Source: Dehalococcoidia bacterium (GTDB taxonomy: Bacteria > Chloroflexota > Dehalococcoidia > Bin125). Taken from it: a DNA stretch of 64,000 nucleotides. The DNA is taken from contig OZ252031.1 of assembly GCA_965247775.1 (NCBI GenBank), forward strand, positions 1,692,855 through 1,756,854, in the 5' to 3' direction. Positions 8,771-61,995 of this stretch are shown here, one piece after another. Within the stretch, counting starts at the first letter, position 1. Each line of letters begins with the position of its first letter. The position numbers and the translations under genes are program-made. The notes under the pieces were generated by a model. That model saw only the letters and a list, made by a program, of their open reading frames with translations. It had not been told where the DNA came from and ran no database searches.

Positions 8771-10258
8771 ATGACGAACGCCGCGCTGGGGGAGACGCCG
8801 GCCCCGCCGTTGCCGCAGGACCAGGACTGGATCAACACGTCGCGGCCGCTGACGCTGGAGGATGTGCGCGGGCGGCTGGTGATCCTGCACTTGTGGACGT
8901 ACGCCTGAATCAACTGCCTGCACGTGCTTCCGCAGTTGCGGAAGCTGGAGCGTGGTTATGCGGATGCGCTCACGGTGATCTCGGTGCACTCGCCGAAGTT
9001 CCCGACGGAGCGGGAGACGGCGCATCTGCGGCAGGCGGTGCTGCGGCATCGGATCGAGCATCCGGTGCTGAACGATCGGGACTTCCACTACTGGCAGCAG
9101 CTAGGGGCGCGGGCCTGGCCGACGCTGTACTTCGTGGATCCGCTGGGCAACGTGATCGGGCGGCACGAGGGGGAGATCCGGGCGGAGGCGGTGGCGCCGC
9201 TGCTGGAGTCGTGGCTGGGGGAGTACCGGTCGGCGGGGCTGCTGGGGGGGACGACGCTGCCCCTGGAGCGGGCGACGGGGGTGGCGAGTCCGCTGTCGTT
9301 CCCGGGCAAGGTGGCGTACGACGAGGCGAGCGGGCGGCTGTTCGTCGCGGACAGCAACCATGACCGCGTGGTCGTTGGGCGGCTGGACGGGTCGGTGGAG
9401 CAGGTGGTGGGGAGCGGGGAGGCGGGGCTGGCGGACGGTGCGCCGGGGTCGGCCCGGTTCCGGCAGCCGCAGGGGATGACGGTATGGCGGGACGAGGCGG
9501 GGGAGGCGCTGTTCGTGGCGGATACGGAGAACCACGCGATCCGGCGGGTGGACCTGGAGAGCTGGGAGACGACGACGGTGGCGGGGACGGGGGAGCAGTG
9601 CGGGACGGCGCCGCAGCGGCGGGCGGCGCGGGGGGCGGCGCTGAACTCGCCCTGGGACGTCGTGGGGCGGGAGGGGCGGCTGTACGTGGCGATGGCGGGC
9701 TTCCACCAGTTGTGGGAGTTGGACCTGGAAGCGGGGATGATCGGGCCGTGGGCGGGGTCGATGCGAGAGGGGATCGTGGATGGGACGCGGGCGTCGGCGG
9801 AGCTGGCGCAGCCGAGCGGGCTGTCGCTGGGGGGGGAGGGGCTGGCGTTCGCGGATAGCGAGTCGAACGCGGTGCGGCTGGCGGGGGTCGGGGTTGGGGG
9901 CCGGGTCGAGACGGCGATCGGGGAGGGGTTGTTCGAGTTCGGGGACGCGGACGGGGGGCAGGGGGTGGCGCGGCTGCAGCATCCGCTGGACGTGGCCTGG
10001 CTGGGCGAGGAGCTGTATGTGGCGGACACGTTCAATCACAAGGTCAAGCAGGTCTTTCCGCGCACGCAGCAGGTGCGGACGGTGTGTGGGGGGCTGGGGG
10101 AGGCGGACGGGTCGTTGGGGGAGGCGCGGTTCAACGAGCCGGGGGGGATCTGCGCGGGGCCGGGGCGGAGTTTGGTCGTGGCGGACACGAATAACCACGC
10201 GGTGCGGGTGGTGGACTTGGCGGGGGGGAGGGTGCGGACGGTGGAACTCCGCCCATAA
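8771..10258 (+). CDS. selenoprotein candidate: thioredoxin-fold plus NHL-repeat protein (NHLRC2-like) with in-frame TGA (Sec46) in a U-x-x-C redox motif
   Basis: ATG 8771 follows aggag. Continuous frame 8771..10258 except TGA at 8906-8908. Context LVILHLWTYA-U-INCLHVLPQL aligns with the NHLRC2 FTYCCINC motif. NHL repeats follow. Stem-loop 8926-8945 lies downstream of the TGA. Confidence 0.7.
8926..8945 (+). promoter_or_regulatory. candidate bacterial SECIS hairpin (gcttccgc-AGTT-gcggaagc), about 20 nt downstream of UGA
   Basis: Perfect 8-bp stem with an AGUU loop, seen in the sequence. Confidence 0.45.
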
Positions 10259-10273
10259 CCCCCCCCTCCGTGG

Positions 10274-10289
10274 GGCGCGCGAGCGCGCC
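10274..10289 (+). terminator. GC-rich palindrome ggcgcgc-ga-gcgcgcc just after the NHL gene stop
   Basis: Perfect inverted repeat; no U-tract. Confidence 0.3.
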
Positions 10290-10864
10290 TCTCGACTTCG
10301 CTCGGGGGAACCTCGGGACGGGCGGGGCAACGAGAGCCGATCAGCGGATACAGCCGGGGCGGGGCTCGCCGATCACGCAGTTGTGAAGCATTCGGTGTCG
10401 GCATCCCGGCACAACGTGCGCTCTTGGCCGCCGACGTCGTACGTGAGGCAGTTCTGATGCCTCGTGCGGTGTCGTTCCGCGATGGGGTGGTAGCGCCAGG
10501 CGTCGCGGCTGTAGACATTCGTCACGATTGCATCCGGGTCTGGCGTATCCGGGTCTGGGACTGGCCCCTCGGGACTGGCCCCTCGGACTGGGCGATCCGC
10601 CCTTCCAAGCCGGGAGCGACCCCCGAGGAACAGGCTGCAATCAGGACGACCGTGGCCGGGCGGGCCAGGTCCAACCGGCGCATGTCGCGCAGCCCGACGG
10701 TCACAGGGCGCAGAGGGGGCTCCGCGGGCGGCGCTTCGGGGTCGGACGGTCGCGGGGAAGCGCCCGCCCGCGGGAGCGTGTCGCGACCGCTGCGACCGAT
10801 GGGTGGCGCCAGTGGCCGTGGTCGTTGCGCTCTCGCGGGAGTGGCCGTTGGGGCACCCGCTCGC

Positions 10865-15261: not shown

Positions 15262-16251
15262 ATGACGGTGCGGACGCCCGGGATGGATCCGTCCGGCCGG
15301 GCGAGGCTGCGGGCGCGGGCGAGCCAGATCTGGCGGGACTGGCTGAGCCCGAGCCGGAGCGGGACGGGGCGGGAGACGGCGAGCGGGCGGGCGATGCACG
15401 CGCTGCTGTTTCTGTCGGCGCTGCTGTCGGTGGGGGTGACGCTGGGCATCGTCTCGGTGCTGATCTTCGAGACGGTGGAGTTCTTCCGGGAAATCCCGCT
15501 GGGGGACTTTTTCGGCGATACGGTGTGGTCGCCGCTGATCGGGGTGGAGAAGCGCTTTGGGGTGTGGGCGCTGGTGTGGGGGACGGCGCTGGTGGCGCTG
15601 CTGGCGCTGGCGGTGGCGGCGCCGGTGGGGCTGCTGACCGCGATTTACCTGAGTGAGTACGCGCCGCCCCGGGTGCACGCCGTGCTGAAGCCGGTGCTGG
15701 AGATCCTGGCGGGGATCCCGACGGTGGTGTACGGGTTCTTCGCGTTGCTGTTCATCACGCCGATCATCCGCAGCATCTTTCCGGAGACGACGATTTTCAA
15801 CGCGCTCAGCGCGGGGATCGTGGTGGGGGTGATGATCGTCCCGATGATCTCGTCGTTGAGTGAGGACGCATTCGCGGCGGTGCCGAACGCGCTGCGGGAG
15901 GGGGCGTACGCGCTGGGGGCGACGCGGATGGAGACGGCGTTGCGGGTGGTGCTGCCGGCGGCGCTGTCGGGGGTGGTGGCGTCGGTGATTCTGGCGGCCT
16001 CGCGGGCGATCGGGGAGACGATGATCGTGACGGTGGCGGCGGGGCAGAATCCGGCCTTCCTGGCGAATCCGCTGGAGGCGATCCAGACGATGACGGCGTT
16101 CATCGTGCAGATCAGTTTGGGGGACGCGCCGGCGGAGAGCATTGAGGCGAAGACGTTGTTCGCGGTTGGGATGACGCTGTTCGTGATGACGCTAGCGATG
16201 AACGTGGTGGCGGGCTGGGTGGCGAGCCGGTTCCGGGAGCAGTACGAATGA
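15262..16251 (+). CDS. pstC: phosphate ABC transporter permease
   Basis: PstC topology and EAA loop. Start is uncertain (TTG 15241 or ATG 15262). Confidence 0.8.
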
Positions 16252-24128: not shown

Positions 24129-24436
24129 ATGAGGCGGCGCAAGATCTGGACCTGGGCGGACTCGAAGATCATGGCCGCGCGGACGCGCTGGCGGAGTTCG
24201 GAGAAGGTCTGGTCCTGGGCGGCCAGTTCTTCGAACTGCTCCAGCTCCTGCATGGAGTCGAAATGGGCGACGATCTTGACCTGGCTGGCGGGGCCGGTGA
24301 TGGAGTCCCAGACGGCGAAGTCGGCCTCGATGCCGCGCTGGGCCTGGTAGTCGAGGGCGGCTTCCACGGCGGCGAGGAACTCGCCGTGCTTGCCGGGAGC
24401 GACGTGTCCGGTGAGCACGCGCTGGTACATGGTCAT
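24125..24436 (-). CDS. small alpha/beta-barrel protein (ABM/Dabb-like)
   Basis: 103 aa. ATGA overlap with the mobA stop. Confidence 0.5.
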   Translation of the reverse strand: MTMYQRVLTGHVAPGKHGEFLAAVEAALDYQAQRGIEADFAVWDSITGPASQVKIVAHFDSMQELEQFEELAAQDQTFSELRQRVRAAMIFESAQVQILRRLI

Positions 24437-25125
24437 GGGGAGCCTCCCTGCGTAGGGCCCGGGGTGGCGAGAGGGGTTGGGGCGCTGGACGCGGCTTGGG
24501 CGAGGATGGCGGCGACGCGCCGGAGGTCGGCGGGGCGGTTGACGTTGGTCAAGGAGCGCAGGCCGGGATCGTGGGGGCGCAGGTCATTGAGGGGGAGGGC
24601 GCGGCCACGCACCCGCTGGAGGAGGAGGCGGGGGCGGCGCTCACCGGCGTCGAGCATGGCGGTGGCGGCGGGCAGACAGGCGCGGCGGTAGGCGGCGAGG
24701 AGGGGCTGGGCGCGGTCGCCATCGTGGGGCATGACGGCGTCGTAGTCGGCGGCGGCGGCGGCGAGGGCGCGGAGGAGGGCGGGGTTGAGGAGGGGCATAT
24801 CCGTGGCGACGACGAGGGCGATGTCGTGCTGGACGGCGGGGAGGGCGGCTTCGATGCCGGCGAGGGGGCCGGCGTCGTGGCGACGGTCGCGGACGACGCG
24901 CCAGGTGAGGTCCGAGGGGGGGGCGGGGAGGTCCTGGCGGGGACGGGCGACGACGACGAGGTCGTCGCTGACGCGGGCGAGGGCTTCGGCGGTCCAGTGC
25001 AAGAGGGGGCGGCCGGCCACCTTCGCGGTGGCCTTGTCGCGGCCGAGGCGGGAGCCGAAACCGCCGGCGAGGATGACGCCGCTGATGGGCTCGGGAGGGG
25101 GCACGTCGGTCGGGCGGGTCCGCAT
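24433..25125 (-). CDS. mobA: molybdenum cofactor guanylyltransferase
   Basis: GVILAGGFGSRLGRDKA nucleotide-binding motif. Confidence 0.8.
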   Translation of the reverse strand: MRTRPTDVPPPEPISGVILAGGFGSRLGRDKATAKVAGRPLLHWTAEALARVSDDLVVVARPRQDLPAPPSDLTWRVVRDRRHDAGPLAGIEAALPAVQHDIALVVATDMPLLNPALLRALAAAAADYDAVMPHDGDRAQPLLAAYRRACLPAATAMLDAGERRPRLLLQRVRGRALPLNDLRPHDPGLRSLTNVNRPADLRRVAAILAQAASSAPTPLATPGPTQGGSP

Positions 25126-25169: not shown

Positions 25170-25955
25170 ATGAGCGCGACGCCGCTGCACGAGGCGCTGG
25201 AGATCCCGCTGCCGGAGGCCGGGCGGCCGAGCCTGCTGGCCGTGGTGGGCGGGGGCGGCAAGACGACGCTGCTGTTCGCGCTGGGGGCGGAACGATCGGC
25301 CGCCGGGGGGGCGGCTGCGAGCGCCGTGAGCGTGCTGACGACGACGACGAAGTTCACGATCCCGGCGGCGGGGGCGGAGTTCCCGACGGTACTGGCGACG
25401 AATGTCCTGGTGCGGGCGGCGGCGATCGCGGAGGTGCAGGGGCGGGGGCCGGCGACGGTCCTGGTGGGGGCGGGGCGGGGGGAGCGGGGGCGGCTGCTGG
25501 GGGTGGAGGCGGAGTGGCCGTCGCAGGCGCTGGGGATCGCGGGGGTGACGTTCGTGGGGGTGGAGGCGGACGGGTCGGCGGGGCGGCCGTTCAAGGCGCC
25601 GGCGTCGCATGAGCCGGTGATGCCGGCGGGGGTCACGCACGTGGCGGCGGTGGTGGGCGTGGAGGCGCTGGGCAAGCCGCTGGAGGCGCGCTTCGTGCAT
25701 CGGCCGGAGCGGGTGATGGCGCTGACGGGGGCGCGCGAGGGGGCCGAGGTGACGGCTGGGATGATCGGGGCTGTGTTGTCGCACGCCGCCGGAGGCCGGA
25801 AGGGAGTTCCCGCCGCAGCGGCGTTCAGTGTCCTGGTGACACGGGCGGGACGCGACATCGAGGGAGCGCGGGCGATCGGGGCGGCATGCCGGGAACGGGG
25901 CGTCGAGCGGGCCGTCGCCTGGGATGCGACGGAGGCCGTGATCGAGGCGGTGTGA
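25170..25955 (+). CDS. yqeC: YqeC-family protein (putative selenium-dependent molybdenum hydroxylase accessory protein)
   Basis: P-loop LAVVGGGGKTTL, then VSVLTTTTKF and a conserved ALGKPL block, in the order expected for the YqeC family. Divergent from mobA. Confidence 0.6.
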   Translation: MSATPLHEALEIPLPEAGRPSLLAVVGGGGKTTLLFALGAERSAAGGAAASAVSVLTTTTKFTIPAAGAEFPTVLATNVLVRAAAIAEVQGRGPATVLVGAGRGERGRLLGVEAEWPSQALGIAGVTFVGVEADGSAGRPFKAPASHEPVMPAGVTHVAAVVGVEALGKPLEARFVHRPERVMALTGAREGAEVTAGMIGAVLSHAAGGRKGVPAAAAFSVLVTRAGRDIEGARAIGAACRERGVERAVAWDATEAVIEAV

Positions 25956-27126: not shown

Positions 27127-29922
27127 CTACCAGTACTGGCGGCGTTTGCCGCGGCGACGCTTGCCGCCGCCGTGGCCCCACTCCTGGGGGTCGGCGGCGC
27201 GGTCGAGGGCGACGGCGCAGACCTTGTATTCGGGGATGCGGGATTGCGGGTCGTAGGCGTTGTTGGTGAGCCAGTTGGCGGCGGAGTCCTTGAGGCGGAG
27301 GAAGGGCACGAAGACGGAGCCGGGGGCGACGTCCTCGGTGAGGAAGGCGACGCCCTCGAGGCGACCGCGGCGTGAGCGGAGGAGGACGGTTTCGCCGTCG
27401 GCGATCTCGGCGCGGGCGGCGTCGGCGGGGTGGACGGCGACGCGGAGTTCCGGGAAGGAGTCGGCGAGGCCCTGGACGCGACTGGTGAGGGCGCCGCCGT
27501 GCCAGTGGTAGAGGACACGGCCGGTGTTGAGGATGAGGGGATAGGCGTCGTCGGGCTGCTCCTCGGCGGGGGCGGTCTGACGCACGGGGACGAACTTGGC
27601 CTTGCCGCGAGGGAAGTCCCGGGCGTACATGCGCTCGGTGCCGGGATGCGCAGGGTCGGGGCAGGGCCACTGGATGCCGCCTTCGCGGTCGAGGCGATCA
27701 TGGGAGAGGCCGGCCATGATGGGGGTGAGCGCGGCGAGTTCGTCGAAGATCGCGGCGGCGGAGGGGTGGTCGAAGCCGCGCAGTTCGACGTTGCGCCGCC
27801 GCGCGACGCGGGCGGCGAGGTCCTGCACGATCTCCCAGTCGGGCCGGGCCTCGCCGGGAGGGTCGAGGAGCTTGCGGAGGCGCTGGACGCGGCGCTCGCT
27901 GTTGGTGACGGTGCCCTCCTTCTCAGCGAAGGAGGCGGCGGGGAGGACGACGTCGGCGATGTCGGCAGTCTCCTGCATGAAGATGTCCTGCACCACGAGG
28001 AAGTCGAGCGTGGCGAGCATCTCGGTGGCGTGCGCGAGGTTGGGGTCGGTGAGCGCGGGGTTCTCGCCGACGACGTACATGCAGCGGATGCTGCCGTCGC
28101 CCATGGCCTCGACCATGTCGGTGGCGCGCAGCCCCTCCTTGTCTGACAAGCGGAGGGCGGCCACGTCGCCGCCCCAGACGGACTGGAAGCGGGCGAGGTT
28201 GTCGGGGGTGTAGCGCTGGTAGCCGGGGAGGGCGTCGGGAACGCAGCCGGCGTCGCCGGCGCCCTGGACGTTGTTCTGGCCGCGCAGGGGGGAGACGCCG
28301 TTGCCGGCGCGGCCGACCTGGCCGGTGAGCAGGGCGAGGTTGAGGAGGGCAGTGGCGTTGGCGGTGCCGTTGGTGTGCTGGGTGACGCCCATGCCCCAGA
28401 GGAGGCAGGAGCCATCGCGGCCGGGGGGGCCGCCGTGCCCGGCGGGGCGGGCGTAGAGGCGGGCGGCGCGGCAGAGGAGATCGGCCGGGACGCCGGAGAG
28501 TTCCTGCACATGTTCGGGGGTGTAGTGGTCGAGGGCGGCGCGCCAGGCGTCGAAGTCCTCGGTGCGGTCGCGGATGAATGCTTCGTCGTGGAGGTTCTCG
28601 TCGAGGATGAGCTTGGCCATGCCGTTGAGGACGGCGACGTCGGTGCCGGGGTACTGGCGCAGCCAGAGGTCGGTGTGATCGCAGAGTTCGATGCGCTTGG
28701 GATTGAGGATGATCATGCGGACGCCGTGATCGTTGACGGCGCGGCGGATGCGGCTGGCGATGACGGGGTGGTTGGAGGAGGTGTCGGAGCCGACGACCAT
28801 GACGCAGCCGGCGTCCTCGTAGTCGGTGTAGGAGTTGGAGGTGGCGCCGCTGCCGAGCTGGTTGAGCATGGCATCGACGGAGGGGGCGTGGCAGAGGCTA
28901 GTGCAGTGGTCGATGTTGTTGGTGCCCATGAGGGCGCGGACGAGCTTCTGGATCAGGTAGTTGTCCTCGTTGGTGGCTTTGGCGCTGGCGAAGGCGCCGA
29001 AGTGGCCGCGGTGCTGGACGAACTTGTCGGCGACGAGGTCGAGAGCCTCGTCCCAGGTGGCGGGCTGGAGGGCGCCAGCGCGGCGGATGAGGGGCGTCGT
29101 GAGGCGGTCGGGGTGGTTGACGAACGAGACGCCGAAGCGGCCCTTGACGCAGAGGAGGCCGAGGGAGGAGCGGTTGGCGGGGTCGTCATCGACGTGGGTG
29201 ACGCGGCCGGCGTCGTCGGCGGAGAGCTGGATGCCGCAGCCGACGCCGCAGTAGGGGCAGACCGTGGAGACGGTGCGGGCGGGGGCGGGGGGCTGCTTGG
29301 AGCGGATGGCGCCGGTGGGACAGGCGGCGACGCACTGGCCGCACGAGGTGCAGATGGACTCCCCGAGGGGTTCGTCGGCGAAGGGGGCGATGCGGGTGGC
29401 GGCGGCGGCGCCGGCGATGCCGATCGCGCCGATGTGCTGGAGGTCCTGGCAGGCGGAGGTGCAGCGACCGCAGAGGATGCACTCGGTGGCGTCGAAGAGG
29501 TAGAAGGGGTTGCTCTCGTCGCGGTGATCGTTGCGGCGGGGGGTCCAGCGGCGGGGGTCGGCGACGTGGGAGACGGCAGCGCGGCCGAGTTCGGAGCCGG
29601 GCTGGGGATCGGATTCGGGGTCGCGCATGGCGAGGGTGAGTTCGAGGACACCGCGGCGGACATCGCGCGCTTGCTCGGATTGGGTGTGCACGACCATGCC
29701 ATCATTCGCGGGAAGGGAGCAGGAGGCGGGGAGGCCGCGGACACCGTCGATCTCGACGAGGCAGGTGCGGCAGGCGCCGAGGGCGGGGCCGTCCGGGTCC
29801 TTGCAGAGGTGGGGGAAGCCGCCGTCGCGGGCGAGGACAGCGTCGAGGACGGTGGCGCCGGGGGGGACCTGAATGGGTTCGCCATCGACGGTGAGGGAGA
29901 GGGGAGCGCTCGTGGGAGTCAT
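27127..29922 (-). CDS. fdsA: NAD-dependent formate dehydrogenase catalytic (alpha) subunit, molybdopterin/Fe-S, Cys-type
   Basis: N-terminal 2Fe-2S and 4Fe-4S Cys clusters. Active-site region NNIDHCTSLCHAPSV has Cys, not Sec. 931 aa. ATGA overlap with the upstream gene. Confidence 0.9.
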   Translation of the reverse strand: MTPTSAPLSLTVDGEPIQVPPGATVLDAVLARDGGFPHLCKDPDGPALGACRTCLVEIDGVRGLPASCSLPANDGMVVHTQSEQARDVRRGVLELTLAMRDPESDPQPGSELGRAAVSHVADPRRWTPRRNDHRDESNPFYLFDATECILCGRCTSACQDLQHIGAIGIAGAAAATRIAPFADEPLGESICTSCGQCVAACPTGAIRSKQPPAPARTVSTVCPYCGVGCGIQLSADDAGRVTHVDDDPANRSSLGLLCVKGRFGVSFVNHPDRLTTPLIRRAGALQPATWDEALDLVADKFVQHRGHFGAFASAKATNEDNYLIQKLVRALMGTNNIDHCTSLCHAPSVDAMLNQLGSGATSNSYTDYEDAGCVMVVGSDTSSNHPVIASRIRRAVNDHGVRMIILNPKRIELCDHTDLWLRQYPGTDVAVLNGMAKLILDENLHDEAFIRDRTEDFDAWRAALDHYTPEHVQELSGVPADLLCRAARLYARPAGHGGPPGRDGSCLLWGMGVTQHTNGTANATALLNLALLTGQVGRAGNGVSPLRGQNNVQGAGDAGCVPDALPGYQRYTPDNLARFQSVWGGDVAALRLSDKEGLRATDMVEAMGDGSIRCMYVVGENPALTDPNLAHATEMLATLDFLVVQDIFMQETADIADVVLPAASFAEKEGTVTNSERRVQRLRKLLDPPGEARPDWEIVQDLAARVARRRNVELRGFDHPSAAAIFDELAALTPIMAGLSHDRLDREGGIQWPCPDPAHPGTERMYARDFPRGKAKFVPVRQTAPAEEQPDDAYPLILNTGRVLYHWHGGALTSRVQGLADSFPELRVAVHPADAARAEIADGETVLLRSRRGRLEGVAFLTEDVAPGSVFVPFLRLKDSAANWLTNNAYDPQSRIPEYKVCAVALDRAADPQEWGHGGGKRRRGKRRQYW

Positions 29923-31925
29923 GCGGGGACCTCCGGCGTGAGGGCGGAGTCGAAGTGGGCGAGGGCGCTGGTGACGGGCGCGACGGCCATTTGGCCCAAG
30001 CCGCAGAGCGAGGCGGAGCGGAGGAGGGGGATGAGGGCGTCGATGTCGGCGCGGGCGGCCTCACGATCGGCCTGGCCGGCGCTGCGGAGGCGGCGGACGG
30101 CGGCGGCGAGACGCTCGCCGCCCTCGCGGCAGGGGGTGCACTTGCCGCAGGACTCGCGGGCGTTGTAGTCGGCCTCGATCTGGAGGATCTCGCCGACGGG
30201 GGTCGCGGCGTCGAAGGCGACGATGCCGCCGGAGCCGAGAACGGCGCCGGCCTCGTCGAGGGCGCCGGGGCCGATGGGGAGGTCGAGCTTCGTGGCGGGG
30301 AGGAGCCCGCCGGAGGGGCCGCCGGCGACGACGCCGCCGAGGGCGGCCGGATCGGCAACGCCGCCGATGTGGAGGATGGCGGCGACGGTGGCGCCCATCG
30401 GGACCTCGATCAAACCGGGGCGGGGGACCGCGCCGCTGAGGCTGATCAACTTGGTGCCGGGGGCATCGTCGGTGCCGGCGTCGCGGAACCAGTCGACGCC
30501 GAAGCGGAAGAGGTCGGGCAGGTTGCAGAGGGTTTCGACGTTGCTGATCACGGTGGGGCGGCCCCAGAGGCCGCGCTCGGTGGGGAAGGGAGGGCGCAGG
30601 CGAGGGACGGCGCGGCGGCCCTCGATGCTTTCGAGGAGGACGGTTTCCTCGCCGCAGACGTAGCCGCCGGCGCCGCGACGGATCTCGACGCGGAGGCCCG
30701 CGGTGTCACTTCCCTTATGTGCGCGGGCGTTCTGCGCGCCGGGGGCGCCGGCGCGCAGAACGCCCGCTTCCTCCGCCTGGGCGAGGGCGGTGGTGAGGCG
30801 CTGATGGGAGAGCGCCGCTTGCCCGTTGACGTAGATGAAGGCGAGGTCCGCGCCGACGGCGTGGGCGGCGATGCAGACGCCCTCGATCAGGCGATGGGGG
30901 TCGGCCTCCATGAGGGCGCGGTCCTTGAAGACGCCGGGCTCCCCCTCCTCGGCGTTGACGACGAGGCTCGGGGTGCCGTTGCGGGTGGCAGCGGCGCTGG
31001 CGGCGCGCCACTTGAGGTGGACGGGGAAGTAGGCGCCGCCACGGCCGCGCAGGCCGGAGGCTTCTACCGCGTCGACGATCTCCTCGGGGGTGATGGAGAG
31101 CGCTGTCTTGAGGCCGACGTAGGCGCCGGCGGCGCGGGCCTCGTCGAGGGAGGCGGGGTCGATGTGGCCGGCCCGGGCGAGGAGGCGGCGGGTCTGGGGC
31201 GCGAGAAAGTCGTGCAGGGCGGGGTCCTCGGGGGCGCCGGCGAGGAGGGCGCGCGCGACGCCGGCGGCGGCGGCGGCCGTGACGGGGACGGCGGCGGGAC
31301 GGGTGGGGCCGTCCGGGGGGAGGGCGAGGACGGGGGCGGCCCAGGCAGCGCCATCGCCGCCGGTCTCGACGACGTCGATCTCGGGCAAGGCGTCGCGCAG
31401 GGCGTCGAGGACGTGGCCCGCGCCGACGGCGCGGGCCATGGCACCGCCGCGGAGGTTGAGCCGGGGGCGGGGGCCGGGGGGCGACGGCACGAGGGCGGGG
31501 GCCGGGTCGGCGGCGAAGCCCGCGGCGGCGCGGCCCCGCTCTGGTGTATCGGCTCTGCCGAAGAGCGGGCCGTCGTCCTCGACGACGGGAGCGACGGCGC
31601 AGGCGAAGCAACACTCGCGTTCCTCCACGCGGCGGCCGGCGTCGCGGAGGGAGGCGGCCAGGGCGTCGCTGCCAGCCAAGCGGCAGCTCAGACCGCGGCA
31701 GACAGCGATCGCGCCGGGCTCGGGGGGGAGGGTGCGGAACTCGGTGTAGGAGGTCGCGACGGCGTAGAGGTCGGAGTTGGGGATGTGGAGCCAGTGCCCG
31801 ATCTGCTCCAGGCCGGCGGGGTCAAGGTAGCCCGCGATCTCGTGGAGCAGGTGGAGGGCGGGGAGCGCTTGGGCGCGCTCCCGGGGGAGAGAAACCAGCC
31901 GATCGTCGAGGCCGTCGACCGTCAT
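29919..31925 (-). CDS. formate dehydrogenase beta/gamma fusion (NuoE-like 2Fe-2S plus NuoF-like FMN/NAD-binding 4Fe-4S subunit)
   Basis: NuoF motifs GRGGAYFP ... GGYVCGEETVLLESIEG ... ESCGKCTPCR. Start ATG 31925 or TTG 31982. Confidence 0.75.
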   Translation of the reverse strand: MTVDGLDDRLVSLPRERAQALPALHLLHEIAGYLDPAGLEQIGHWLHIPNSDLYAVATSYTEFRTLPPEPGAIAVCRGLSCRLAGSDALAASLRDAGRRVEERECCFACAVAPVVEDDGPLFGRADTPERGRAAAGFAADPAPALVPSPPGPRPRLNLRGGAMARAVGAGHVLDALRDALPEIDVVETGGDGAAWAAPVLALPPDGPTRPAAVPVTAAAAAGVARALLAGAPEDPALHDFLAPQTRRLLARAGHIDPASLDEARAAGAYVGLKTALSITPEEIVDAVEASGLRGRGGAYFPVHLKWRAASAAATRNGTPSLVVNAEEGEPGVFKDRALMEADPHRLIEGVCIAAHAVGADLAFIYVNGQAALSHQRLTTALAQAEEAGVLRAGAPGAQNARAHKGSDTAGLRVEIRRGAGGYVCGEETVLLESIEGRRAVPRLRPPFPTERGLWGRPTVISNVETLCNLPDLFRFGVDWFRDAGTDDAPGTKLISLSGAVPRPGLIEVPMGATVAAILHIGGVADPAALGGVVAGGPSGGLLPATKLDLPIGPGALDEAGAVLGSGGIVAFDAATPVGEILQIEADYNARESCGKCTPCREGGERLAAAVRRLRSAGQADREAARADIDALIPLLRSASLCGLGQMAVAPVTSALAHFDSALTPEVPA

Positions 31926-32003
31926 TGGACGGATTATCGCACGGCGGCGGCGTGGCCGGCGCCTGGGCGGGCAGCGGGTCAACCAGCGTCCACGAAGGCG
32001 TGG

Positions 32004-32789
32004 CTACCAGGGGATCGGCAGGAAGCGCTTCCAGCCGCGGGGTTTGATCTCCTTGATGCGCCAGGGCGCCTTCTGGGTGGAGAAGGTGGGAGCGATGTCG
32101 GCGCCGTCGGCGGCGACGAGTTCGGCCAGGGCCTTATCGATGCGGTCGGCGTCGGCCCAGGTGGCCTTGTAGTGGACGCGGCCGTCCTTGCCGACGACGT
32201 AGACCATGTTGGGGAGGTCGCCGAGCTGGTGGTGGACCTCCTGATCGATACCGTCAACGAGGACGCCGACGGACATGGACTTCTGCCGCACCAGTTCCTG
32301 GGCGTACTGCATTTTCTGCTCGTACGTCTTGTGCTCGTGGTAGGCGGTGAAGATCGTTTCGTCGGGGTGGGGTTCCCGCACGTAGAGGTTGAGGACGGCG
32401 ACGTCGTGGCCGGCGTACTTGTCCTTGAGCTGCTCGAAGAGCGGCACCTGCCGCCGGTAGGGCGGTCACGTCATGGCGCCGGTCATCAGCACGAAATGCT
32501 TCTGGCCCTTGAAGGTGGCGGTGTTGACGCGCTCGCCGGTCGTGGTTTCGAGGTCGATGGCGGGGAATTCCTCGCCGGGAGGGAAGGTGGTCTTGGATTT
32601 CTGGTAGAGCTTCTGGATGTAGCCCTCGCCGCCGAGGCCGAGGTGGCCGAGCATGATCTTGAAGACGCGGACGCGGTCGATGTAGTACATGCTCCAGAAG
32701 CCCATCCAGGGCCCGGGGGGCTTGTCGATGGCTTCGTTGTGGTCCTGTAGGTAGGAGCGCGCGGCCGGCTCCCCTTCGGTGGTGGTCAT
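32004..32789 (-). CDS. selenoprotein candidate: iodothyronine-deiodinase-like thioredoxin-fold protein, in-frame TGA (Sec108)
   Basis: Track ORFs 32466..32789 and 32004..32447 are in the same frame and separated only by TGA at 32466-32468. Context KHFVLMTGAMT-U-PPYRRQVPLFEQL ... LYVREPHPDE aligns with the deiodinase FGSATUPPF ... YIDEAHPSDGW. ATG 32789 follows agggggac. Stem-loop right after the TGA. Confidence 0.7.
32440..32455 (-). promoter_or_regulatory. candidate bacterial SECIS hairpin (ggcggc-AGGU-gccgcu) about 13 nt downstream of UGA
   Basis: 6-bp stem including one G-U pair; loop carries GGU. Confidence 0.45.
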
Positions 32790-39296: not shown

Positions 39297-42282
<2,986 letters not shown>

Positions 42283-42354
42283 TGCTTTGCGGTTTCCGCA
42301 GTGTGGGGTTGATGATGGTCAGGCTGGTCGCTCGTGTAGGCTGTTCGGTGCCGG

Positions 42355-42429
<75 letters not shown>

Positions 42430-44830: not shown

Positions 44831-44960
44831 CACTCCTCTCGGCCGACGCCGCAGTGGCCGGGTCATGTGACCCATGCGCACGCGTGATGCTGGGTGGCAG
44901 CGTTCACCAGCGCGATGCGGGGACGCGAATCGATGAACGCGCACCAGGGCCGGCGCGATC

Positions 44961-45030
44961 CGTGCGCAGTTGGGATCGCTGCAGTTGGGATCACTGCAGC
45001 TGGGATCACTGCAGCTGGCATCACTGGGAT
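44961..45030. repeat. 15-bp tandem repeat (tgcagctgggatcac), about 4.5 copies
   Basis: Seen in the sequence. Intergenic, downstream of tRNA-Glu. Confidence 0.8.
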
Positions 45031-45181
45031 CCTGCCCGGAGTCGTACGGCATCGGCCCCAGATCCCGTTGGGCCAGCACTCCCGGCGGCGTGGACGGGAG
45101 GGTGCGGGGCAGGCCGGACGGTCGCGCCTCGCGCCACGCGGGGCGGTGGCGCCACAGACGGCCCCCAGCGGTTCGGGCCGC

Positions 45182-46056
45182 CTAGCGCCCGACGGGCAGT
45201 CGCCAGCGGGCGTCGGTGACGTCCCCGAGGCTGCGGATGTGAATGATGAACTCCACCCGGCCGGACTCGACAAGATCCGCGAGCCCGATCGGGGAGGTGC
45301 GGCCGGCGTCGGGGTCCGCGGCAGAGCCCGCCGCGGGCGGGGATTGGGGCAGGCGTGGCGGGCGAATCCAGGCCATGGCCTCCAGTTGCTTCACCTCGCC
45401 GGGCCCGACCTCGCGACTGTATGGCGCGGCCACGTAGGGATTCGGGAGTGCGAAGCCGAGCCCAATCGCCGCGACCACTCCATCGACCTCCGCCGTGATC
45501 GCGTGCGGGTCCGGCGTAACGGCGAGTGTCTCTGCGCTGTCGAGGTTCGCGACCCGGAATTGGCACCAGCGCGCGTTGTGGCAGGCCTGCAGTTGTACCG
45601 CGATCGGGCCTTGCCGCCACCACTCCCCGATCTCTAGGACCGTGCCGGGCGGCGTGGCCTCCAGTCGCGTCGCGAGGCGAGCGCCCGCGTCGCTGGTCTC
45701 TGAGCCAGTCCCGGCCTCGGAGCCCCGATCAGCGACGGCCGCACTGGCCAACTCCTCCTGGAGGGAGGCGATCGCCGCCCGGAGCGTGGCGACTTCTCCC
45801 TCCAACGCCGCGATCTGTGTGCGGAGACCCGCTCGGTCGGCGAGGCTCCCACTCTCCGGGCGAGTATCGAACTCCGCTTCAGCGGCGGCGCGGCGCTGCA
45901 CCCGATCCGGCGCCGCGTCGGGGGCCGCGCGCAGGGACTGGCTCTCCTCGATGGGCACCGTGATCGCAACGGGATCGCCTTCTGATCCAGCGTCACTTCC
46001 GCATGCGACGAGCAGGAGTCCGAGGCCGAGAGCGCCCAGGCCGGGCCAGCGTCGCA
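45182..46056 (-). CDS. hypothetical lipoprotein with coiled-coil segment
   Basis: GTG start 4 nt after gggagg. Lipobox LLLVAC. Only the C-terminal 291 aa of the 565-aa track ORF is protein-like. Confidence 0.5.
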
Positions 46057-46251
46057 CGGCGCCTCCCGTCACACGGGAGCTTAGGCGAGCCGGGCAGTGT
46101 TCGGGGCGTTGTGATGACGGTGTCGGGGCGCCTCCAGACCGGGAACGTGTAGCCTGATCCGGCGTCGGCGTACGGTCTGAGTCGGCCGCGAATCCCGCTG
46201 GGGCCGCCAATCCGTGCGCTGCGGCCGGGGGGGAAGGGGAGGTGACGACCG

Positions 46252-46698
46252 ATGACGCTCGAGCGGCGCAGGCCGGTGGTCGTGCGGCCGGAGGATCGGG
46301 CGGGGCAGCCGACGGCGGCAGGCGGGGACATCTACGCGACGCTGGCAACCGGCTCGGAGACGGATGGGGCCTACTTCCTGACGCACACGATCGTGCCGCC
46401 GGGCGGGGGGCCGCCGGCGCACATCCACACGCGGGAGGAGGAGGCGTTCTACGTGCTGCGGGGCGAGTTGGTCTTTCGGGTGGACGCACAGGAGGTGACG
46501 GTGGGGCCGGGCACGTTCTTGAACGTGCCCAAGGGGGCCAAGCACCGGTTCCACAACGCGGGGGAGGTCGACGCTGAGATGATCTTCTGGTTCGCGCCGG
46601 CGGGGATCGAGGGGCTGTTCCGTGAGCTGGGGGAGCACCCGGAGCGGATCCGGGAGATCGGGGCGCGCTACGGGGTGGAGTACTTCCTGGAGGAGTAG
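46252..46698 (+). CDS. cupin-domain protein
   Basis: Cupin motifs HIHTREEE and GAKHRF. ATG follows ggaaggggagg. Confidence 0.75.
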   Translation: MTLERRRPVVVRPEDRAGQPTAAGGDIYATLATGSETDGAYFLTHTIVPPGGGPPAHIHTREEEAFYVLRGELVFRVDAQEVTVGPGTFLNVPKGAKHRFHNAGEVDAEMIFWFAPAGIEGLFRELGEHPERIREIGARYGVEYFLEE

Positions 46699-46923
46699 GG
46701 AGCGGGCGGCCGGTGTTCGCCGCCCCGACCTGCCAAGCGTGGGCGCGGATCCGGTAGGGGCGCCCGGACGCCGAACGGCAGGGCCGGAGGTGGGGCGGGA
46801 GAAGAACGCCCGCCGGGCGGCGCCGCGCGGCAGCGCCCGCCGGGCACGATCGTGGCCCAGCGACGAGCACGGTGCCCACGCCCCAGCCCGCGCCGGGGTG
46901 TGGGCGCGGGCGGCGGGGGGGGG

Positions 46924-47778
46924 TCAGGCGCGATCGCGCGCGGCGGCGATGGCGCGGCCGGCCATGACCGCGGCCATGGCGCGGCGGTACTGGGCGGAGG
47001 CGTGGATGTCGGTGTTGACATCGTCGAAGCCGTCGGCGGCGTGGGCGGCGGCGGCCTCGACGACGTCAGCGGATAGGGTCCGTCCCACGAGGGCGTCCTC
47101 GACGGCGGGGAGGCGCTGGGCGTGGGAGGCGAGACCAGTGATGCCGAGGCGGGCGCCGCGGCAGATGTCGCCGTCGAGGTCGAGGACGGCGGCGACGCCG
47201 ATAATGGCGTAGTGGGAGGCGCGCTGGTGGAGCTTGGCGTAAGCGGCGGTCTGCACGGCGGCGAAGCGGACGGCGGTGATCACCTCGTCCTCGGCGAGGT
47301 CGACCGTGAAGAGATCCTGGAAGAACCCGCCGATGGGCACGGTGCGGGGGCCGGCGGCGCCGACGACATCGAGTTCGGCATCGAGGGCGAGGACGACAGC
47401 GGGCATGTCGGCGGCGGGGTCGGCGTGGGCGAGGCTGCCGCCGATGGTGCCGAGATTGCGGACCTGGGGGTCGCCGATTTCAGCGGCGGCCTCGGCGACG
47501 ATGGGGGCGTGCAGCTGGAGGACGTCGGATCGCTCCACCTCCCGATGGGTGGTGGTGGCGCCGATGGTGATCCGGCCGGCGGCCTCGCTGATGCCGCCGA
47601 GGCCGGGCACGCCGCCGATGTCGATGAGGAGGCCGGGCTCGCTGAGGCGCAGCTTCATGAGGGGGATGAGGCTGTGGCCGCCGGCGAGGAGGCGGCCCTC
47701 GCCGCCGGCCTCACCGAGGAGGCGGACGGCCTCCTCGACGGTGGCGGCGCGCTTGTAGTCGAAGGCGGTGGGGATCAT
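46924..47778 (-). CDS. xanthine dehydrogenase/CO dehydrogenase family FAD-binding medium subunit (CoxM/CutM-like)
   Basis: FAD_binding_5 motifs LLAGGHSL and [12 protein letters not shown]. Confidence 0.85.
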
Positions 47779-47860
47779 GACTGGGCTCCGTGGGTGCTGT
47801 GGGGATCCTGGCGGCGTTCGCGGCGCCGGCCGCCGAGGCGGGCGGGGGCGGCTGGGGCGA

Positions 47861-48340
47861 TCACGCGCGGGGTCCGGCCGTGGCGGCGCGCTGGACGGCG
47901 TTGACGATGTGCTGGTAGCCGGTGCAGCGGCAGAGGTTGCCGTCGAGGCCGTGGCGGATCTCGTCCTCGGACGCGTTGGGGTTGTCGTCGAGGATCTGGA
48001 TGGCGGAGATGATCATGCCGGGGGTGCAGTAGCCGCACTGCAGGCCGTGCTCCTGCCAGAAGGCCTCCTGCATGGGGTGGAGCTGTTCGTCGCTGCCGAT
48101 GCCTTCGATGGTGGTGATCTCGGCGCCGTCGGCTTGGACGGCGAACATGGTGCATGATTTGGCGCTGCGGCCGTTGAGCATGATGGTGCAGGCGCCGCAC
48201 TGGCTGGTATCGCAGCCGACGTGGGTGCCGGTGAGGCCCAGGACTTCGCGCAGGAAATGGACGAAGAGGAGCCGCGGCTCCACTGCCGCTTCATGGACGG
48301 CGCCGTTGACGGTGAGGCGAATGGGGATGCTGTCCGGCAT
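47861..48340 (-). CDS. xanthine dehydrogenase/CO dehydrogenase family (2Fe-2S)-binding small subunit (CoxS-like)
   Basis: [10 protein letters not shown] and CGYCTPGM Cys clusters. Confidence 0.9.
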
Positions 48341-48384
48341 GGGGGTCCTCTCGTGGCGGGGGGTGGGCGGTGGGGGATCGCGGG

Positions 48385-48828
48385 TCAGGTGCTCTCCTGA
48401 ATGTGCTGGTCCATGGCCTTGAAGAAACGGCCGGCCATCATTTTGGCTGCGCTGCTCACGAGGCGGCTGCCGAGGCGGGCGATGGGACCGCGGGCGCGGA
48501 CGTCGGCAACGTAGCGCAGGGCGGTGCCGTCGCCGTCGGGGGTGAGGGTGATTCGGGCGTCGCCCTCGACGCTGCCGCCCTTGCCACCGCCGCCAGCGTT
48601 GAGGCGGTAGCTGCTGGGGGCCTCGGGCTCGCGCATGGTGACGTTGCCGGCGTAGGTGCCGCGAATGGCGGAGATGCCGAGTTTGACGGTCATGTCGTAG
48701 GAGTCAGGGCCAACCTCGGAGAGCTCCTCACAGCCGGGGATGGTTTGGCGGAGCGCGTCGGGGTCCATGAGCTTGCGCCAGACGATGTCCGGCGGCGCAG
48801 CGAAGCGGTGCTCTCCGTGGAGTTCCAC
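48385..48828 (-). CDS. CoxG-like SRPBCC protein
   Basis: GTG start follows aaggagag. CoxG-family N-terminus [23 protein letters not shown]. Confidence 0.6.
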
Positions 48829-49149
48829 CGGCTCTCCTTTGAGTGGGGTCCGGCCCCCGGGCGCGCCGGAGGGCGGGGCGGCGGGCAGGCTACCACAGGG
48901 GCCGGCCTCCAAGCAGCCGGGGCGCGGCGGGAATGCGGGGGAATTTCGGCTCCGACTGGGATTGCGCCCGAGAGGGGTGCGCCGGATGGCGGCATAGGGC
49001 CGGTAGGGAGTCGCTAGGCGTCCCGGGGGTCCTGCGGGTCGGCCGGGGGCTCGAGCGCGCGCCGGACCGTGGCGAGGGCTCCGGGCCCGGCGGGAGGGAG
49101 CAGTCCGTGGGGAGCGAGTCGGCCCAGCCGGCGCAGACGCCCGAGATCG

Positions 49150-49854
49150 ATGTTTGCCCGTACCGGGGTTTGCCCGTACCGGGGGCGAGAGCCAGAGGAC
49201 GAGCCGGGTGGGACGACGCCGCTGCGGGCGCCCGCGCAGGACGCGGCGGCCTCGGGGTCGTTCGAGCCGGCGGAGCCGCCGACGGAGCCGGAGATTCCGG
49301 AAGCGCCGCCCGCGGTGGCGCCGGAGGGGCCGGCGCCGGACTACGGCTGGGTGTCGTTCTGGCCGGAGCGGGTGGAATACACGGTGGCAGCGGGCGATAC
49401 GATCGGGAGCGTTGCGGCGCAGTTCGAGACGCACGCCTACGCGATCGTGTGTCTCAACCAGGGTCTCTGGTCCGAGGCGGCGCGTACGCTCACGATGATC
49501 GCCGGGACCCCGCTGGTCATACCGGTGGGCTACGAGGTCCCGGCCGACGCGGCGACGATCGCCGAGTTCGAGGCGACGGGGGCTTCCTGCTGCGTCGCTG
49601 CGGCTCGCGTCGCCGGGTCCATTCCTCCCCATGGCTCGGGCGACCGACGCTGCCCCGCGACGGGGCCTGTCCGTGCGTCGCGCGCCGCCGGGGCTGAGCG
49701 GGAGCTATCATGTCGTGGCTGCGGCCGCGAGGGCGCCGCGCGAGGGAGGAACAGGGATGGCCGTGGACTTCGACACGCTACCGAAATTCGCCGACTTGCC
49801 CGTAAAGGCCGGCGCGCCGGCGGACTCGACCTGGGGGCTGTGGGGGGACGATGA
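49150..49854 (+). CDS. LysM-domain protein with Pro/Glu-rich linker
   Basis: LysM YTVAAGDTIGSVAAQFETHAYAIVCLNQG. The 3' end in this frame overlaps the next gene by about 97 nt, so the true stop is uncertain. Confidence 0.45.
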   Translation: MFARTGVCPYRGREPEDEPGGTTPLRAPAQDAAASGSFEPAEPPTEPEIPEAPPAVAPEGPAPDYGWVSFWPERVEYTVAAGDTIGSVAAQFETHAYAIVCLNQGLWSEAARTLTMIAGTPLVIPVGYEVPADAATIAEFEATGASCCVAAARVAGSIPPHGSGDRRCPATGPVRASRAAGAERELSCRGCGREGAARGRNRDGRGLRHATEIRRLARKGRRAGGLDLGAVGGR

Positions 49855-53849: not shown

Positions 53850-54249
53850 GGGCAGGGGTCGGTCAGCGAGGGAGCGATGCGCTGGCCAAGATCATCAAGG
53901 AGCCAATAACGGTGGAGGCGCCCGGGCGGCCGGAGCTGGGGCTGCTGCACCATCGGTTGCCCTTCAGCCTGCGCTCGTTGTGGGTCGTGCAGTACTGGGA
54001 GTCGTTCGAGAAGCTGGAGGCCTACGCCCGCGCGAACGATTCCGCCCACCTGCCCGCCTGACGGGACTCCAACCAGCGGGTGGGCAGCAGCGGCGACGTG
54101 GGCCTCTGGCACGAGACGTACCGGACCATGCCGGCGTACGGGTTGGGCAAGGCGCTGGGCCTGGTCCCCGCGACCGGGCCACGGCAGACAGCGCCCGGCC
54201 GGATGGGGGTGCCGGAGCCGGAGCAGGCAGCCCCGCCGTCGTGAGCGGA

Positions 54250-59433: not shown

Positions 59434-59581
59434 CGGCGGTGTCTAACGGCGGCGTCTGACGCCCGAGCGCAGGCGGCGGCGCGCCGCGGTGTGTCGCGGA
59501 TGAGAGCGGGGTGGGCCGGAAGGCCCGCCCCGCTTTTCTGGGTGTCGTCGCGTGGGCGGGTCGCGCCGGGGATGCACAGGG

Positions 59582-60448: not shown

Positions 60449-60564
60449 GCGGGCAGGGGAGCAGGCGGGCGGCGGGGGCGCAAGGGAAGCGCCCCGGTGG
60501 TGCGCGGGCGCGGACCGCGGCGGTCTGCCGGCGGGCAGAGCGCGCGCGGATCGGTCGCTACACT

Positions 60565-61452
60565 ATGCGAATGAGCGAACACCCTGCGCTGGAGTTCGAG
60601 GAGCAGCCCCGCCTGCGCCGGCCGCGACTGGTGCTGGCCTGGGCGGGCTGGAACGACGCGGGGGAGGCGGCATCGACGGCGGTGCGCTACCTGGCGGCCT
60701 CGCGGGAGGCGAAGCCCTTCGCGCGGATCGACCCGGAGGAGTTCTACGACTTCACGGAGGCGCGGCCGCTGGCGCGCTACAGCGAGGGCCGGCGCGAGAT
60801 CATGTGGCCGAGCACGGATTTCTACGCGCTGCCGGTGGCGTCGGCGGACGCGGACCTGATCCTGGGGCTGGGGATTGAGCCGAACTACCGCTGGAAGAGC
60901 TACATGGCGGCGGTACGCGCGGTCGTGACGGCGATGGACGTGGAGATGGTGATCACGCTGGGGGCCGTGGTCGCGGGGGTGGCGCACACGCGGCCGGTGG
61001 GGGTGCGGGGGTCGGCGAACGCGGCGACGCTGGCGGAGCGGTACGGCATGCAGCCTTCTCGCTACGAGGGCCCCACGGGGATCGTGGGGGTGTTGCACAA
61101 CGACTGCCGGCGGCACGAAGTCGACGGGATCAGTCTCTGGGCGTCGGTGCCGCATTACCTGCCGGGCCTGACGAATCCCAAGGCGGCCCGGGCGCTGCTG
61201 GAGCGGTTGGGGACGATCTGCGCGCTGCCGGTGGACTACGAGCGCCTGGAGCGGGAGGAGGCGCGCTTCACGCGGCGGGTGGAGGCGGCGCTGGCCGAGA
61301 ACGAGGAGCTGGAGGCGTATGTGCGCCAGTTGGAGGCGCGCGGGGAGGAGGCGACGGATGGGGAGCCGCCGCCGGCCGAGCTGCCCTCGGCGGAGGGGTT
61401 GATCGAAGACTTGGAGGACTACCTGCGGGAGAGTCGTCGGGAGGGGCCCTAG
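60565..61452 (+). CDS. PAC2-family protein (proteasome assembly chaperone-like)
   Basis: N-terminal LVLAWAGWNDAGEAASTAV ... IDPEEFYDF signature of the PAC2 family. Confidence 0.6.
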   Translation: MRMSEHPALEFEEQPRLRRPRLVLAWAGWNDAGEAASTAVRYLAASREAKPFARIDPEEFYDFTEARPLARYSEGRREIMWPSTDFYALPVASADADLILGLGIEPNYRWKSYMAAVRAVVTAMDVEMVITLGAVVAGVAHTRPVGVRGSANAATLAERYGMQPSRYEGPTGIVGVLHNDCRRHEVDGISLWASVPHYLPGLTNPKAARALLERLGTICALPVDYERLEREEARFTRRVEAALAENEELEAYVRQLEARGEEATDGEPPPAELPSAEGLIEDLEDYLRESRREGP

Positions 61453-61500
61453 CAGCGGGAACCGACGAGCGGGCCGGCTGGGCGCGGGAAGGAACAGACG

Positions 61501-61995
61501 ATGGCGGACGAAGCGACAGCGGGACAGCCGGCCGTGGACGAGGTGACGGACGCGGACCGCATGGAGGCGTCGGAGAAGAACGTCGAAAAGATGTGGAAGT
61601 TCGCGCGGAAGTTCGCGGACAAGAGCGGCTCCTACCTGCATCCGCAAGAGGAGATCACGGAGTTTCTGGTGATCGGGCTGGCGAAGCACGTCGACGATCT
61701 GGGCAAGCCGCTCTGCCCCTGCAATTTCTATGAGGACAAAGAGAAAGAGGTGGCGACATCCAACTTCTGGATCTGCCCCTGCGAGGAGATGCAGAAGTGG
61801 AAGTACTGCCATTGACTGCTCTTCTGCGATGCGGAAGGTCTTCCCATCACCGAACACCTGCCGGCCGAACATGAAGGCCGCGAGATCTACGGCGTGATCC
61901 CGGACCCGCAGCCGGAGAAGGGCCGAGCGATCGGCCGGCTGGAGAAGAAGCAGGGGCGACGCATTGAGAAGGGGCGGCGGGCGCCCAAGGACTGA
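61501..61995 (+). CDS. selenoprotein candidate: ferredoxin:thioredoxin reductase catalytic-subunit-like protein with in-frame TGA (Sec105) in the CHC motif (CPC-x16-CPC-x8-CHU)
   Basis: The track ORF 61501..61815 ends at TGA. The frame continues to the TGA at 61993-61995 with FtrC-like sequence (U-LLFCDAEGLPIT versus CHC-MLFLTPDNDFAG). ATG follows gggaagga. A stem-loop lies after the TGA. Confidence 0.7.
61819..61839 (+). promoter_or_regulatory. candidate bacterial SECIS hairpin (cttctgc-GAT-gcggaag) 6-8 nt downstream of UGA
   Basis: 7-bp stem with one G-U pair. Shares the 3' arm GCGGAAG with the NHL gene hairpin. Confidence 0.4.

Follow-up and report, generated by a model that had tools for sequence, protein, structure and literature searches.

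In ferredoxin:thioredoxin reductase (FTR), the redox-active disulfide is made between Cys57 and Cys87, the latter being in contact with the [4Fe-4S] cluster at the stage of the one-electron intermediate. FTR-like selenoproteins, including a form with two selenocysteine (Sec, U) residues, are known from the metagenome of the Global Ocean Sampling (GOS) (Zhang & Gladyshev 2008), and two Cys of FTR are described in the same work as forming the active disulfide (PMC2398784). Deiodinase-like bacterial selenoproteins (PF00837) have already been catalogued as well (PMC2398784, PMC13188914), and current catalogues also hold thiol-disulfide-isomerase or redoxin selenoproteins with a UxxC site (PMC13188914). 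The hairpin that accompanies such codons, the bacterial selenocysteine insertion sequence (bSECIS), has been modelled as having an apical loop of 3-9 nt with a G within its two leading positions, an upper stem of 4-16 bp, a distance of 16-37 nt between the UGA and the apical loop, and an energy of at most -7.5 kcal/mol (PMC13188914). In BSepDB, metagenome-assembled genomes (MAGs) of Dehalococcoidia belong to those richest in selenoproteins, with 46-49 each (PMC13326102). Here, a stretch of 64,000 nucleotides from a Dehalococcoidia bacterium (assembly GCA_965247775.1, contig OZ252031.1), referred to in the following, at its full length, as the window, was analysed. It harbors three genes with an in-frame TGA, encoding a protein with thioredoxin (Trx)-like and NHL domains (gene 1), a deiodinase-like protein (gene 2) and a protein similar to the catalytic subunit of FTR (gene 3). 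The comparison of these genes with their relatives makes it very probable that the three TGAs are Sec codons, each served by a candidate bSECIS, and that UGA is recoded at these sites and not reassigned. The coordinates of the features are collected in Table 1.

Table 1. Position and description of the genes, predicted Sec codons, putative bSECIS elements and other features of the window (position 1 is the first letter of the window).
Feature	Position	Strand	Description
Gene 1	8771..10258	+	Trx-like domain and NHL repeats; active-site motif WTYA-U-INC
Predicted Sec-UGA of gene 1	8906..8908	+	first Cys of CxxC in SOQ1/NHLRC2-type proteins
Putative bSECIS 1	8927..8944	+	CUUCCGC-AGUU-GCGGAAG; 7-bp stem; UGA-to-loop 25 nt
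Gene 2	32004..32789	-	deiodinase-like, Trx-fold; motif GAMT-U-PPY
Predicted Sec-UGA of gene 2	32466..32468	-	catalytic Sec/Cys position of deiodinases
Putative bSECIS 2	32440..32455	-	GGCGGC-AGGU-GCCGCU; 6-bp stem; UGA-to-loop 16 nt
Gene 3	61501..61995	+	FTR catalytic-subunit-like; CPC...CPC...CH-U; C-terminal extension of ~55 aa
Predicted Sec-UGA of gene 3	61813..61815	+	Cys87-equivalent of the CHC motif
Putative bSECIS 3	61828..61848	+	GAUG(C)GGAA-GGUC-UUCCCAUC; 4 bp + 1-nt bulge + 4 bp; UGA-to-loop 21 nt
YqeC-family gene	25170..25955	+	PF19842 1.8e-30; TIGR03172 134.1 bits vs cutoff 73.05
MobA-like Mo cofactor nucleotidyltransferase gene	24433..25125	-	PF12804 5.9e-37; divergent from yqeC
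TrkH/TrkA pair	TGA at 43175		same-frame open reading frames joined by TGA
Aldolase/DUF3108 pair	TGA at 20617		same-frame open reading frames joined by TGA

In all three genes the translation is continuous through the TGA, a base composition of the coding type (~0.9 GC at third positions) extends to either side of it, and the domain searches, which were run with U replaced by C in each protein, revealed known families. In gene 1, the Pfam domains Thioredoxin_8/AhpC-TSA and NHL span the UGA; the protein matches the structures of Arabidopsis SOQ1 (7djj, 1e-105) and human NHLRC2 (6gc1, 1e-96), with which it has the two-domain architecture and full-length similarity in common, and its U is aligned with the first Cys of their CINC motif. 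SOQ1 and NHLRC2 carry CCINC, with Cys, whereas gene 1 carries A-U-INC, that is, the UxxC form of CxxC found in the catalogued Trx-like selenoproteins of the "thiol-disulfide isomerase-like / redoxin" type. A Trx selenoprotein fused to NHL repeats is not named in the literature searched, and such proteins may be filed under the generic Trx-like families.

In gene 2, the T4_deiodinase and Redoxin domains of Pfam span the UGA (PF00837 T4_deiodinase, 41.3 bits versus a Pfam cutoff of 27; the NCBIfam model NF038285, deiodinase_rel, gave 76.1 versus a cutoff of 250), and the U is aligned with the catalytic Sec position, crystallised as Cys, of Dio3 (4tr3) and Dio2 (9h48). The T-U-P-P-[FY] site of the vertebrate iodothyronine deiodinases Dio3 and Dio2 matches gene 2 residue for residue, and the Trx/peroxiredoxin-like fold is common to them; the similarity to Dio3 is low (30 bits to 4tr3) and does not imply a deiodinase substrate, and the protein differs from the known deiodinases and deiodinase-like proteins in its N-terminal region and its C-terminal tail, WKRFLPIPW.

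Gene 3, which contains only one in-frame TGA, was assigned to FeThRed_B (PF02943; 6.5e-24, 84.4 bits versus a cutoff of 22). Its motif CPC-x16-CPC-x8-CHC is aligned with 1dj7 and 7bzk, the U falling on the last Cys, which is Cys87 of the Synechocystis FTR (1dj7). With the known FTR selenoproteins it has in common the fold, the CPC...CPC...CH(C/U) cluster/disulfide motif, the position of Sec at a redox Cys and the location of the bSECIS just downstream; it is set apart from them by its conserved C-terminal extension. The "FtrB family double-selenoprotein" of model NF041072 has two Sec, whereas gene 3 would have only one, at the Cys87-equivalent, the Cys57-equivalent being still a Cys; the score against that model is 32.2 bits versus a cutoff of 160, which places gene 3 outside the double-selenoproteins. 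In the Dehalococcoidia, the neighbours of gene 3 are PAC2 and rpsN. As its second cluster motif, the clade of the window has CPC, and the closest Cys forms have CAC, as do several Sec forms (L009-L015); after the U, the Sec forms read LLFC and the Cys forms LLFV.

The relatives of the three proteins present in public collections are cut at the UGA. The best ~80 homologs of gene 1 (57-93% identity) cover 85-90% of the query and all lack the N-terminus that precedes the UGA, whereas the Cys forms, at ~50% identity, cover 98-100% of it. Gene 2 has only seven close homologs, and all seven are C-terminal fragments starting just after the UGA; when the C-terminal fragment was searched exhaustively, 592 relatives were obtained, and in the distant full-length ones the residues aligned there are TCPP or TCP, apart from a few variants with Ser, Gly or Asn. 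As for gene 3, eight database clusters stop exactly at ...WKYCH, whereas the full-length Cys relatives read ...YKYCHCLLFV.

At the nucleotide level, the TGA itself is conserved. It is kept in 9/9 ortholog loci of gene 1 that were examined (L043-L050, L056, L057), down to a protein identity of 57%. It is also present in all four distinct relatives of gene 2 (L037, L060, L053 and the L038-L042/L051-L052 group), which reach down to 48% full-length identity; the metagenome scan for this gene gave five loci only, two of which were too distant for use. The scan for gene 3, with one genome per species, gave 33 loci, and among the 32 covering the site there are 27 with TGA and five with TGC or TGT; three further loci fetched apart from the scan (L001-L003) have TGA at this site and are syntenic. 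The loci of all three genes are, indeed, syntenic in relatives. On both sides of all three UGAs, the orthologs differ from one another mostly at third codon positions: in the 34 codons upstream of the UGA of gene 1 there are 28 variable third positions, 14 first and 10 second; in gene 2, third positions vary in 40/40 codons upstream (where 15 first and 10 second positions are variable) and in 27/30 downstream; in the 25 codons after the hairpin of gene 3 the variable positions are 25 third, 12 first and 11 second. A variation dominated by third positions on both sides points to a single reading frame under selection at the protein level across the stop codon.

The window has a GC content of 71% and a GC content at third positions of coding frames of ~0.9. 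Gene calling by codon-usage score disclosed 57 likely genes, which were annotated with Pfam and NCBIfam, and the nearest relatives of these genes belong to MAGs labelled Dehalococcoidia or Chloroflexi/Chloroflexota. TGA is the commonest stop codon (31/56 called genes), and an ATGA overlap is present at position 16248; as an earlier note on this DNA had stated, UGA thus serves as an ordinary stop codon too. Since TGA is the commonest stop and ATGA start/stop overlaps are present, UGA would be recoded locally and not reassigned.

The conserved hairpins that follow the three UGAs all agree with the bSECIS model outlined above. Each stem-loop lies 10-18 nt after its UGA, and the four-nt loops (AGUU, AGGU and GGUC) have a G at the first or second position. 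The doubt, raised in the earlier note, that the hairpins might lie too close to the UGA is settled, since it arose from measuring to the stem base, while the model counts up to the apical loop and the three values in Table 1 fall within its range. The E. coli fdhF-type bSECIS is likewise a stem-loop of the coding region placed right after the UGA, with a small loop containing a G followed by G/U, and the single-nucleotide bulge of hairpin 3 represents a further likeness to it and to the bSECIS consensus. The apical loop of fdhF is also GGUC. With respect to the fdhF-type element, the stems described here are short (6-8 bp), the three sequences are unrelated to one another, and the binding of SelB is putative.

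Hairpin 1 has an energy of -15.1 kcal/mol and is the only one of the three that stands out from shuffled sequences (z = -3.6, 30-nt fold). All its 18 nucleotides are invariant in every Sec-form ortholog, down to 57% protein identity; the six third codon positions that it contains are all fixed, whereas most of the flanking third positions vary, and its codons include CTT and TTG, which in the window account for 1% and 6.8% of the Leu codons, respectively. In a Cys form (L058), which has CCINC where the Sec forms have A-TGA-INC, the hairpin site reads GTATTACCTCATCTCAAGAAG; it encodes VLPHLKKL with other codons and forms no hairpin.

Hairpin 3 is the minimum free energy fold of both a 43-nt and a 27-nt stretch (-8.1 kcal/mol; -6.6 without dangling ends). 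Its pairing amounts to 91.8% over a set of 23 distinct Sec forms, both sides change at three pairs, and its covariation score (0.139) was reached by 0/500 shuffles. The third position of a Pro codon follows the codon located across the stem: it is G where that codon is TCG or CCG, C or T where it is GAG, and either where it is GCG, and it can pair with column 19 or 20 in 23/23 sequences. The core GGAAGGTCTTCC is invariant in the Sec forms, even though GAA, GGT and CTT represent 17%, 3.5% and 1% of their codon families, whereas the Cys forms use GAG/GAC, GGC/GGG and CTG at the same place. As far as the hairpins are concerned, the support for recoding comes from hairpins 1 and 3, whose rare codons are invariant in the Sec forms and absent from the Cys forms.

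The hairpin that the earlier note had assigned to gene 3 (CUUCUGC-GAU-GCGGAAG, 61821-61837) turned out to be the wrong one of two overlapping alternatives. It is 86% paired across the same 23 Sec forms with no compensatory change, its pairs 14-20 and 15-19 break in eight and seven of the 23 sequences, respectively, and its GAU loop lies 12 nt from the UGA, outside the bSECIS model. The GCGGAAG arm reported as common to two hairpins is a coincidence, this heptamer having 32 copies in the window; in gene 3 the GCG is variable among orthologs (GAG, CCG, TCG), and the heptamer would belong to the 5' arm and not to the 3' one.

Hairpin 2 has a local energy of -10.6 kcal/mol and is 100% paired across five distinct sequences. 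Its changes concern one pair, which is G-C, G-U or A-U, and the closing pair, which is G-U or G-C; the covariation, with one compensatory pair in five sequences, is not significant (187/500 shuffles) and can be considered suggestive. An overlapping alternative placed directly after the UGA (CCGCC-CUACC-GGCGG) was discarded, as it exhibits no covariation and one break.

On the whole, the proposal of the earlier note that UGA is recoded at a redox Cys in three genes was borne out by the conserved TGA, the Cys homologs, the frame kept on both sides and the conserved hairpins; the latter had been proposed as a check, and a conserved hairpin was found in the orthologs of each gene, although for gene 3 in another form. 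According to this scheme, each UGA would replace with Sec the reactive Cys of a thiol-redox site, i.e., the first Cys of CxxC in gene 1, the catalytic Sec/Cys in gene 2 and the Cys87-equivalent of an iron-sulfur disulfide reductase in gene 3. The stem-loop embedded in the coding sequence would act as a bacterial SECIS. If E. coli is taken as a model, the stem-loop might bring SelB-GTP-Sec-tRNA(Sec) to the ribosome, and Sec would be inserted and termination avoided. For the organism of the window, we infer the existence of the SelB/SelA/SelC/SelD machinery, the insertion of selenium and the physiological roles of the three proteins.

Some observations weigh against the interpretation of the three TGAs as Sec codons. 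No selA, selB, selC or selD gene was found either in the window or in any of the flanking sequences that were fetched, and no sel gene in the extra flank of a near-identical 280-kb contig. No Rfam family was found for the three hairpins in searches around the UGAs with gathering and permissive thresholds, hairpin 2 is known from five distinct sequences only, and hairpin 1, being invariant, offers conservation without covariation. Moreover, with a simple implementation of the bSECIS constraints, 267 of the 1141 TGA triplets of the window (23%) are followed by a qualifying hairpin. Since in a window with this GC content so many TGA triplets have one, a hairpin alone is weak evidence, and the claim of the earlier note that each UGA is followed by a hairpin holds as far as a conserved element exists in each gene, while the mere presence of a hairpin is not above chance. 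The same frequency might suggest that the hairpins are by-products of a GC-rich sequence or of the amino acids that it encodes; the 60-nt folds of hairpins 2 and 3 are no better than those of shuffled sequences, and EGLP and LPQLRK are conserved as residues, too. However, Cys-form homologs with the same or similar residues use common codons and have no hairpin, the rare codons are fixed in the Sec forms (with a joint codon-usage probability of ~6e-5 for GAA-GGT-CTT), and hairpin 3 shows compensatory changes at three pairs as well as a bulge moving with the Pro third position in 23/23 sequences, which makes this explanation very unlikely.

A different possibility is that the TGAs are inactivating mutations or assembly errors and the genes are pseudogenes or split genes. 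It is true that gene callers split all three of them, that the databases hold only fragments, and that another in-frame TGA of the window, in an af470-like gene (54059), does look pseudogenic; nevertheless, the same TGA occurs at the same codon in dozens of independent assemblies and species, substitution patterns of the coding type are kept on both flanks, and a split would sever the Trx fold or the iron-sulfur motif right at the active site, so that this possibility appears extremely improbable. It might also be supposed that UGA is read as a residue other than Sec, either through a SECIS/SelB-like system charged with Cys or through near-cognate insertion of Trp or Cys. Descriptions of allo-tRNAs or of Cys tRNAs resembling tRNA-Sec exist for some bacteria, the sequence tests used are silent on the inserted residue, and the Sec machinery was not located in the window and fetched flanks. 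Against such a decoding, UGA is the commonest stop codon, which argues against a general reassignment, all three families are catalogued as selenoproteins (PMC2398784, PMC13188914), a richness in selenoproteins is reported for the lineage (PMC13326102), and the loops fit the SelB-type bSECIS consensus; the probability left to it is accordingly small. The reading of the three TGAs as Sec codons is thus the preferred one.

Two long tRNAs predicted by ARAGORN were considered as candidates for tRNA-Sec and rejected, as neither has Rfam support: a 92-nt "tRNA-Glu" (31549-31640, +) antisense to the NuoE/F-like gene, and a 98-nt "tRNA-Trp" at positions 3438-3535 of locus L026, in the GC-rich 3' region after the FTR gene. 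Both are likely false positives.

Besides the three TGAs discussed so far, the TGA-joined frames of the TrkH/TrkA and aldolase/DUF3108 pairs were examined and rejected as recoded genes, since they correspond to separate genes with separate domains. A fourth in-frame TGA (54059-54061) is located in a fragment of an af470-like monooxygenase gene (PF13826; 53846-54244, +), whose Pfam score rises from 33.7 to 68.3 bits when the TGA is read as Trp. The fragment is truncated at its N-terminus, with no start codon and without profile positions 1-32; its TGA is not at a Cys site, no bSECIS-like hairpin was found there, and the fragment is absent from the syntenic loci L002 and L003. On these grounds it was rejected as a further Sec codon, and the fragment is probably a decaying pseudogene.

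Gene 2 lies directly upstream, on the same strand, of genes encoding NuoE/F-like proteins and an FdsA-like NAD-dependent formate dehydrogenase (27127-31982, -), and this arrangement, which is kept in L037, suggests that gene 2 is co-transcribed with the formate dehydrogenase genes. In the more distant lineage L038-L042, the gene 2 homolog has an unrelated neighbourhood. The formate dehydrogenase was excluded as a further selenoprotein, because it carries a Cys (SLCHAPS) and no in-frame TGA.

As the earlier note had reported, a YqeC-family gene, a MobA-like gene and several molybdenum or tungsten (Mo/W) enzymes are present in the window, as revealed by Pfam and TIGR matches. The MobA-like protein matches the MobA models with scores under their curated cutoffs; yqeC is located ~1.2 kb from the FdsA-type formate dehydrogenase gene, and the other Mo/W enzymes are AOR, a sulfite-oxidase-like protein and the products of CoxS-, CoxM- and CoxG-like genes. 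YqeC and MobA are molybdenum-cofactor maturation genes. The earlier note had gone further, taking YqeC as a marker of selenium-dependent molybdenum hydroxylases; according to the literature, it is only SelD, YqeB and YqeC together that mark the selenium-cofactor trait, and each of them may act independently of selenium (PMC9312934, PMC5029168). Neither YqeB nor SelD was found among the genes of the window, and for this reason YqeC does not establish the trait. That the window also documents a selenium-dependent molybdenum hydroxylase with a labile selenium cofactor might be suggested by the score of YqeC, above the equivalog cutoff of TIGR03172, and by the presence of CoxS- and CoxM-type subunits and of a MobA-like gene; it is nonetheless rather doubtful, given the joint requirement just mentioned, the lack of a hydroxylase large subunit beside CoxS/CoxM, and the position of yqeC, which adjoins mobA and the genes of a formate dehydrogenase of the bis-molybdopterin guanine dinucleotide type, not those of a hydroxylase. 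The CoxG-, CoxS- and CoxM-like genes (44900-49632, -) have no large subunit alongside, and the 2 kb downstream of them show a poor coding signal except for a cupin gene (46252-46695, +).

The window also contains a complete, solitary 23S rRNA gene (39297-42429, +). No 16S rRNA gene is located upstream of it, where a protein-coding gene ends at 38367, and no 5S rRNA gene was found downstream by Rfam; a tRNA-Met(CAT) gene follows 70 nt after the 23S gene. The rRNA genes of this organism appear to be unlinked.

The three genes add new members to selenoprotein families already described, and the use of selenium is familiar in their lineage. It is conceivable, as a tentative proposal, that the single-Sec FTR-like proteins (CPC...C[PA]C...CH-U plus extension), for which the sole curated model of FTR selenoproteins gives a score under its cutoff, and the Trx-NHL proteins represent subfamilies not yet separated in the catalogues, both widespread in Dehalococcoidia. 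If this were true, the selenium of the FTR-like enzyme would be located at a position contacting the cluster (Cys87 in the Synechocystis FTR) and not at a solvent-exposed nucleophile, and a [4Fe-4S] intermediate with an Fe-Se bond would be predicted; with Sec in the place of the Cys that interacts with the cluster, such an enzyme would be attractive for the study of Se-Fe chemistry.

In public collections the three selenoproteins are represented solely by fragments truncated at the UGA (P0060-P0076, P0121-P0127, P0128-P0208, P0280); as an example, PZC47580.1 (P0280) is a truncated "FTR catalytic subunit" of 121 aa, the ~80 N-terminally clipped Trx-NHL proteins are named "alkyl hydroperoxide reductase", and other fragments "hypothetical protein". 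These entries are a systematic mis-annotation across Dehalococcoidia MAGs, and the conserved hairpins allow the truncated entries to be repaired. The three genes leave the knowledge of the recoding mechanism unchanged; what they extend is the picture of the Dehalococcoidia as heavy selenium users.

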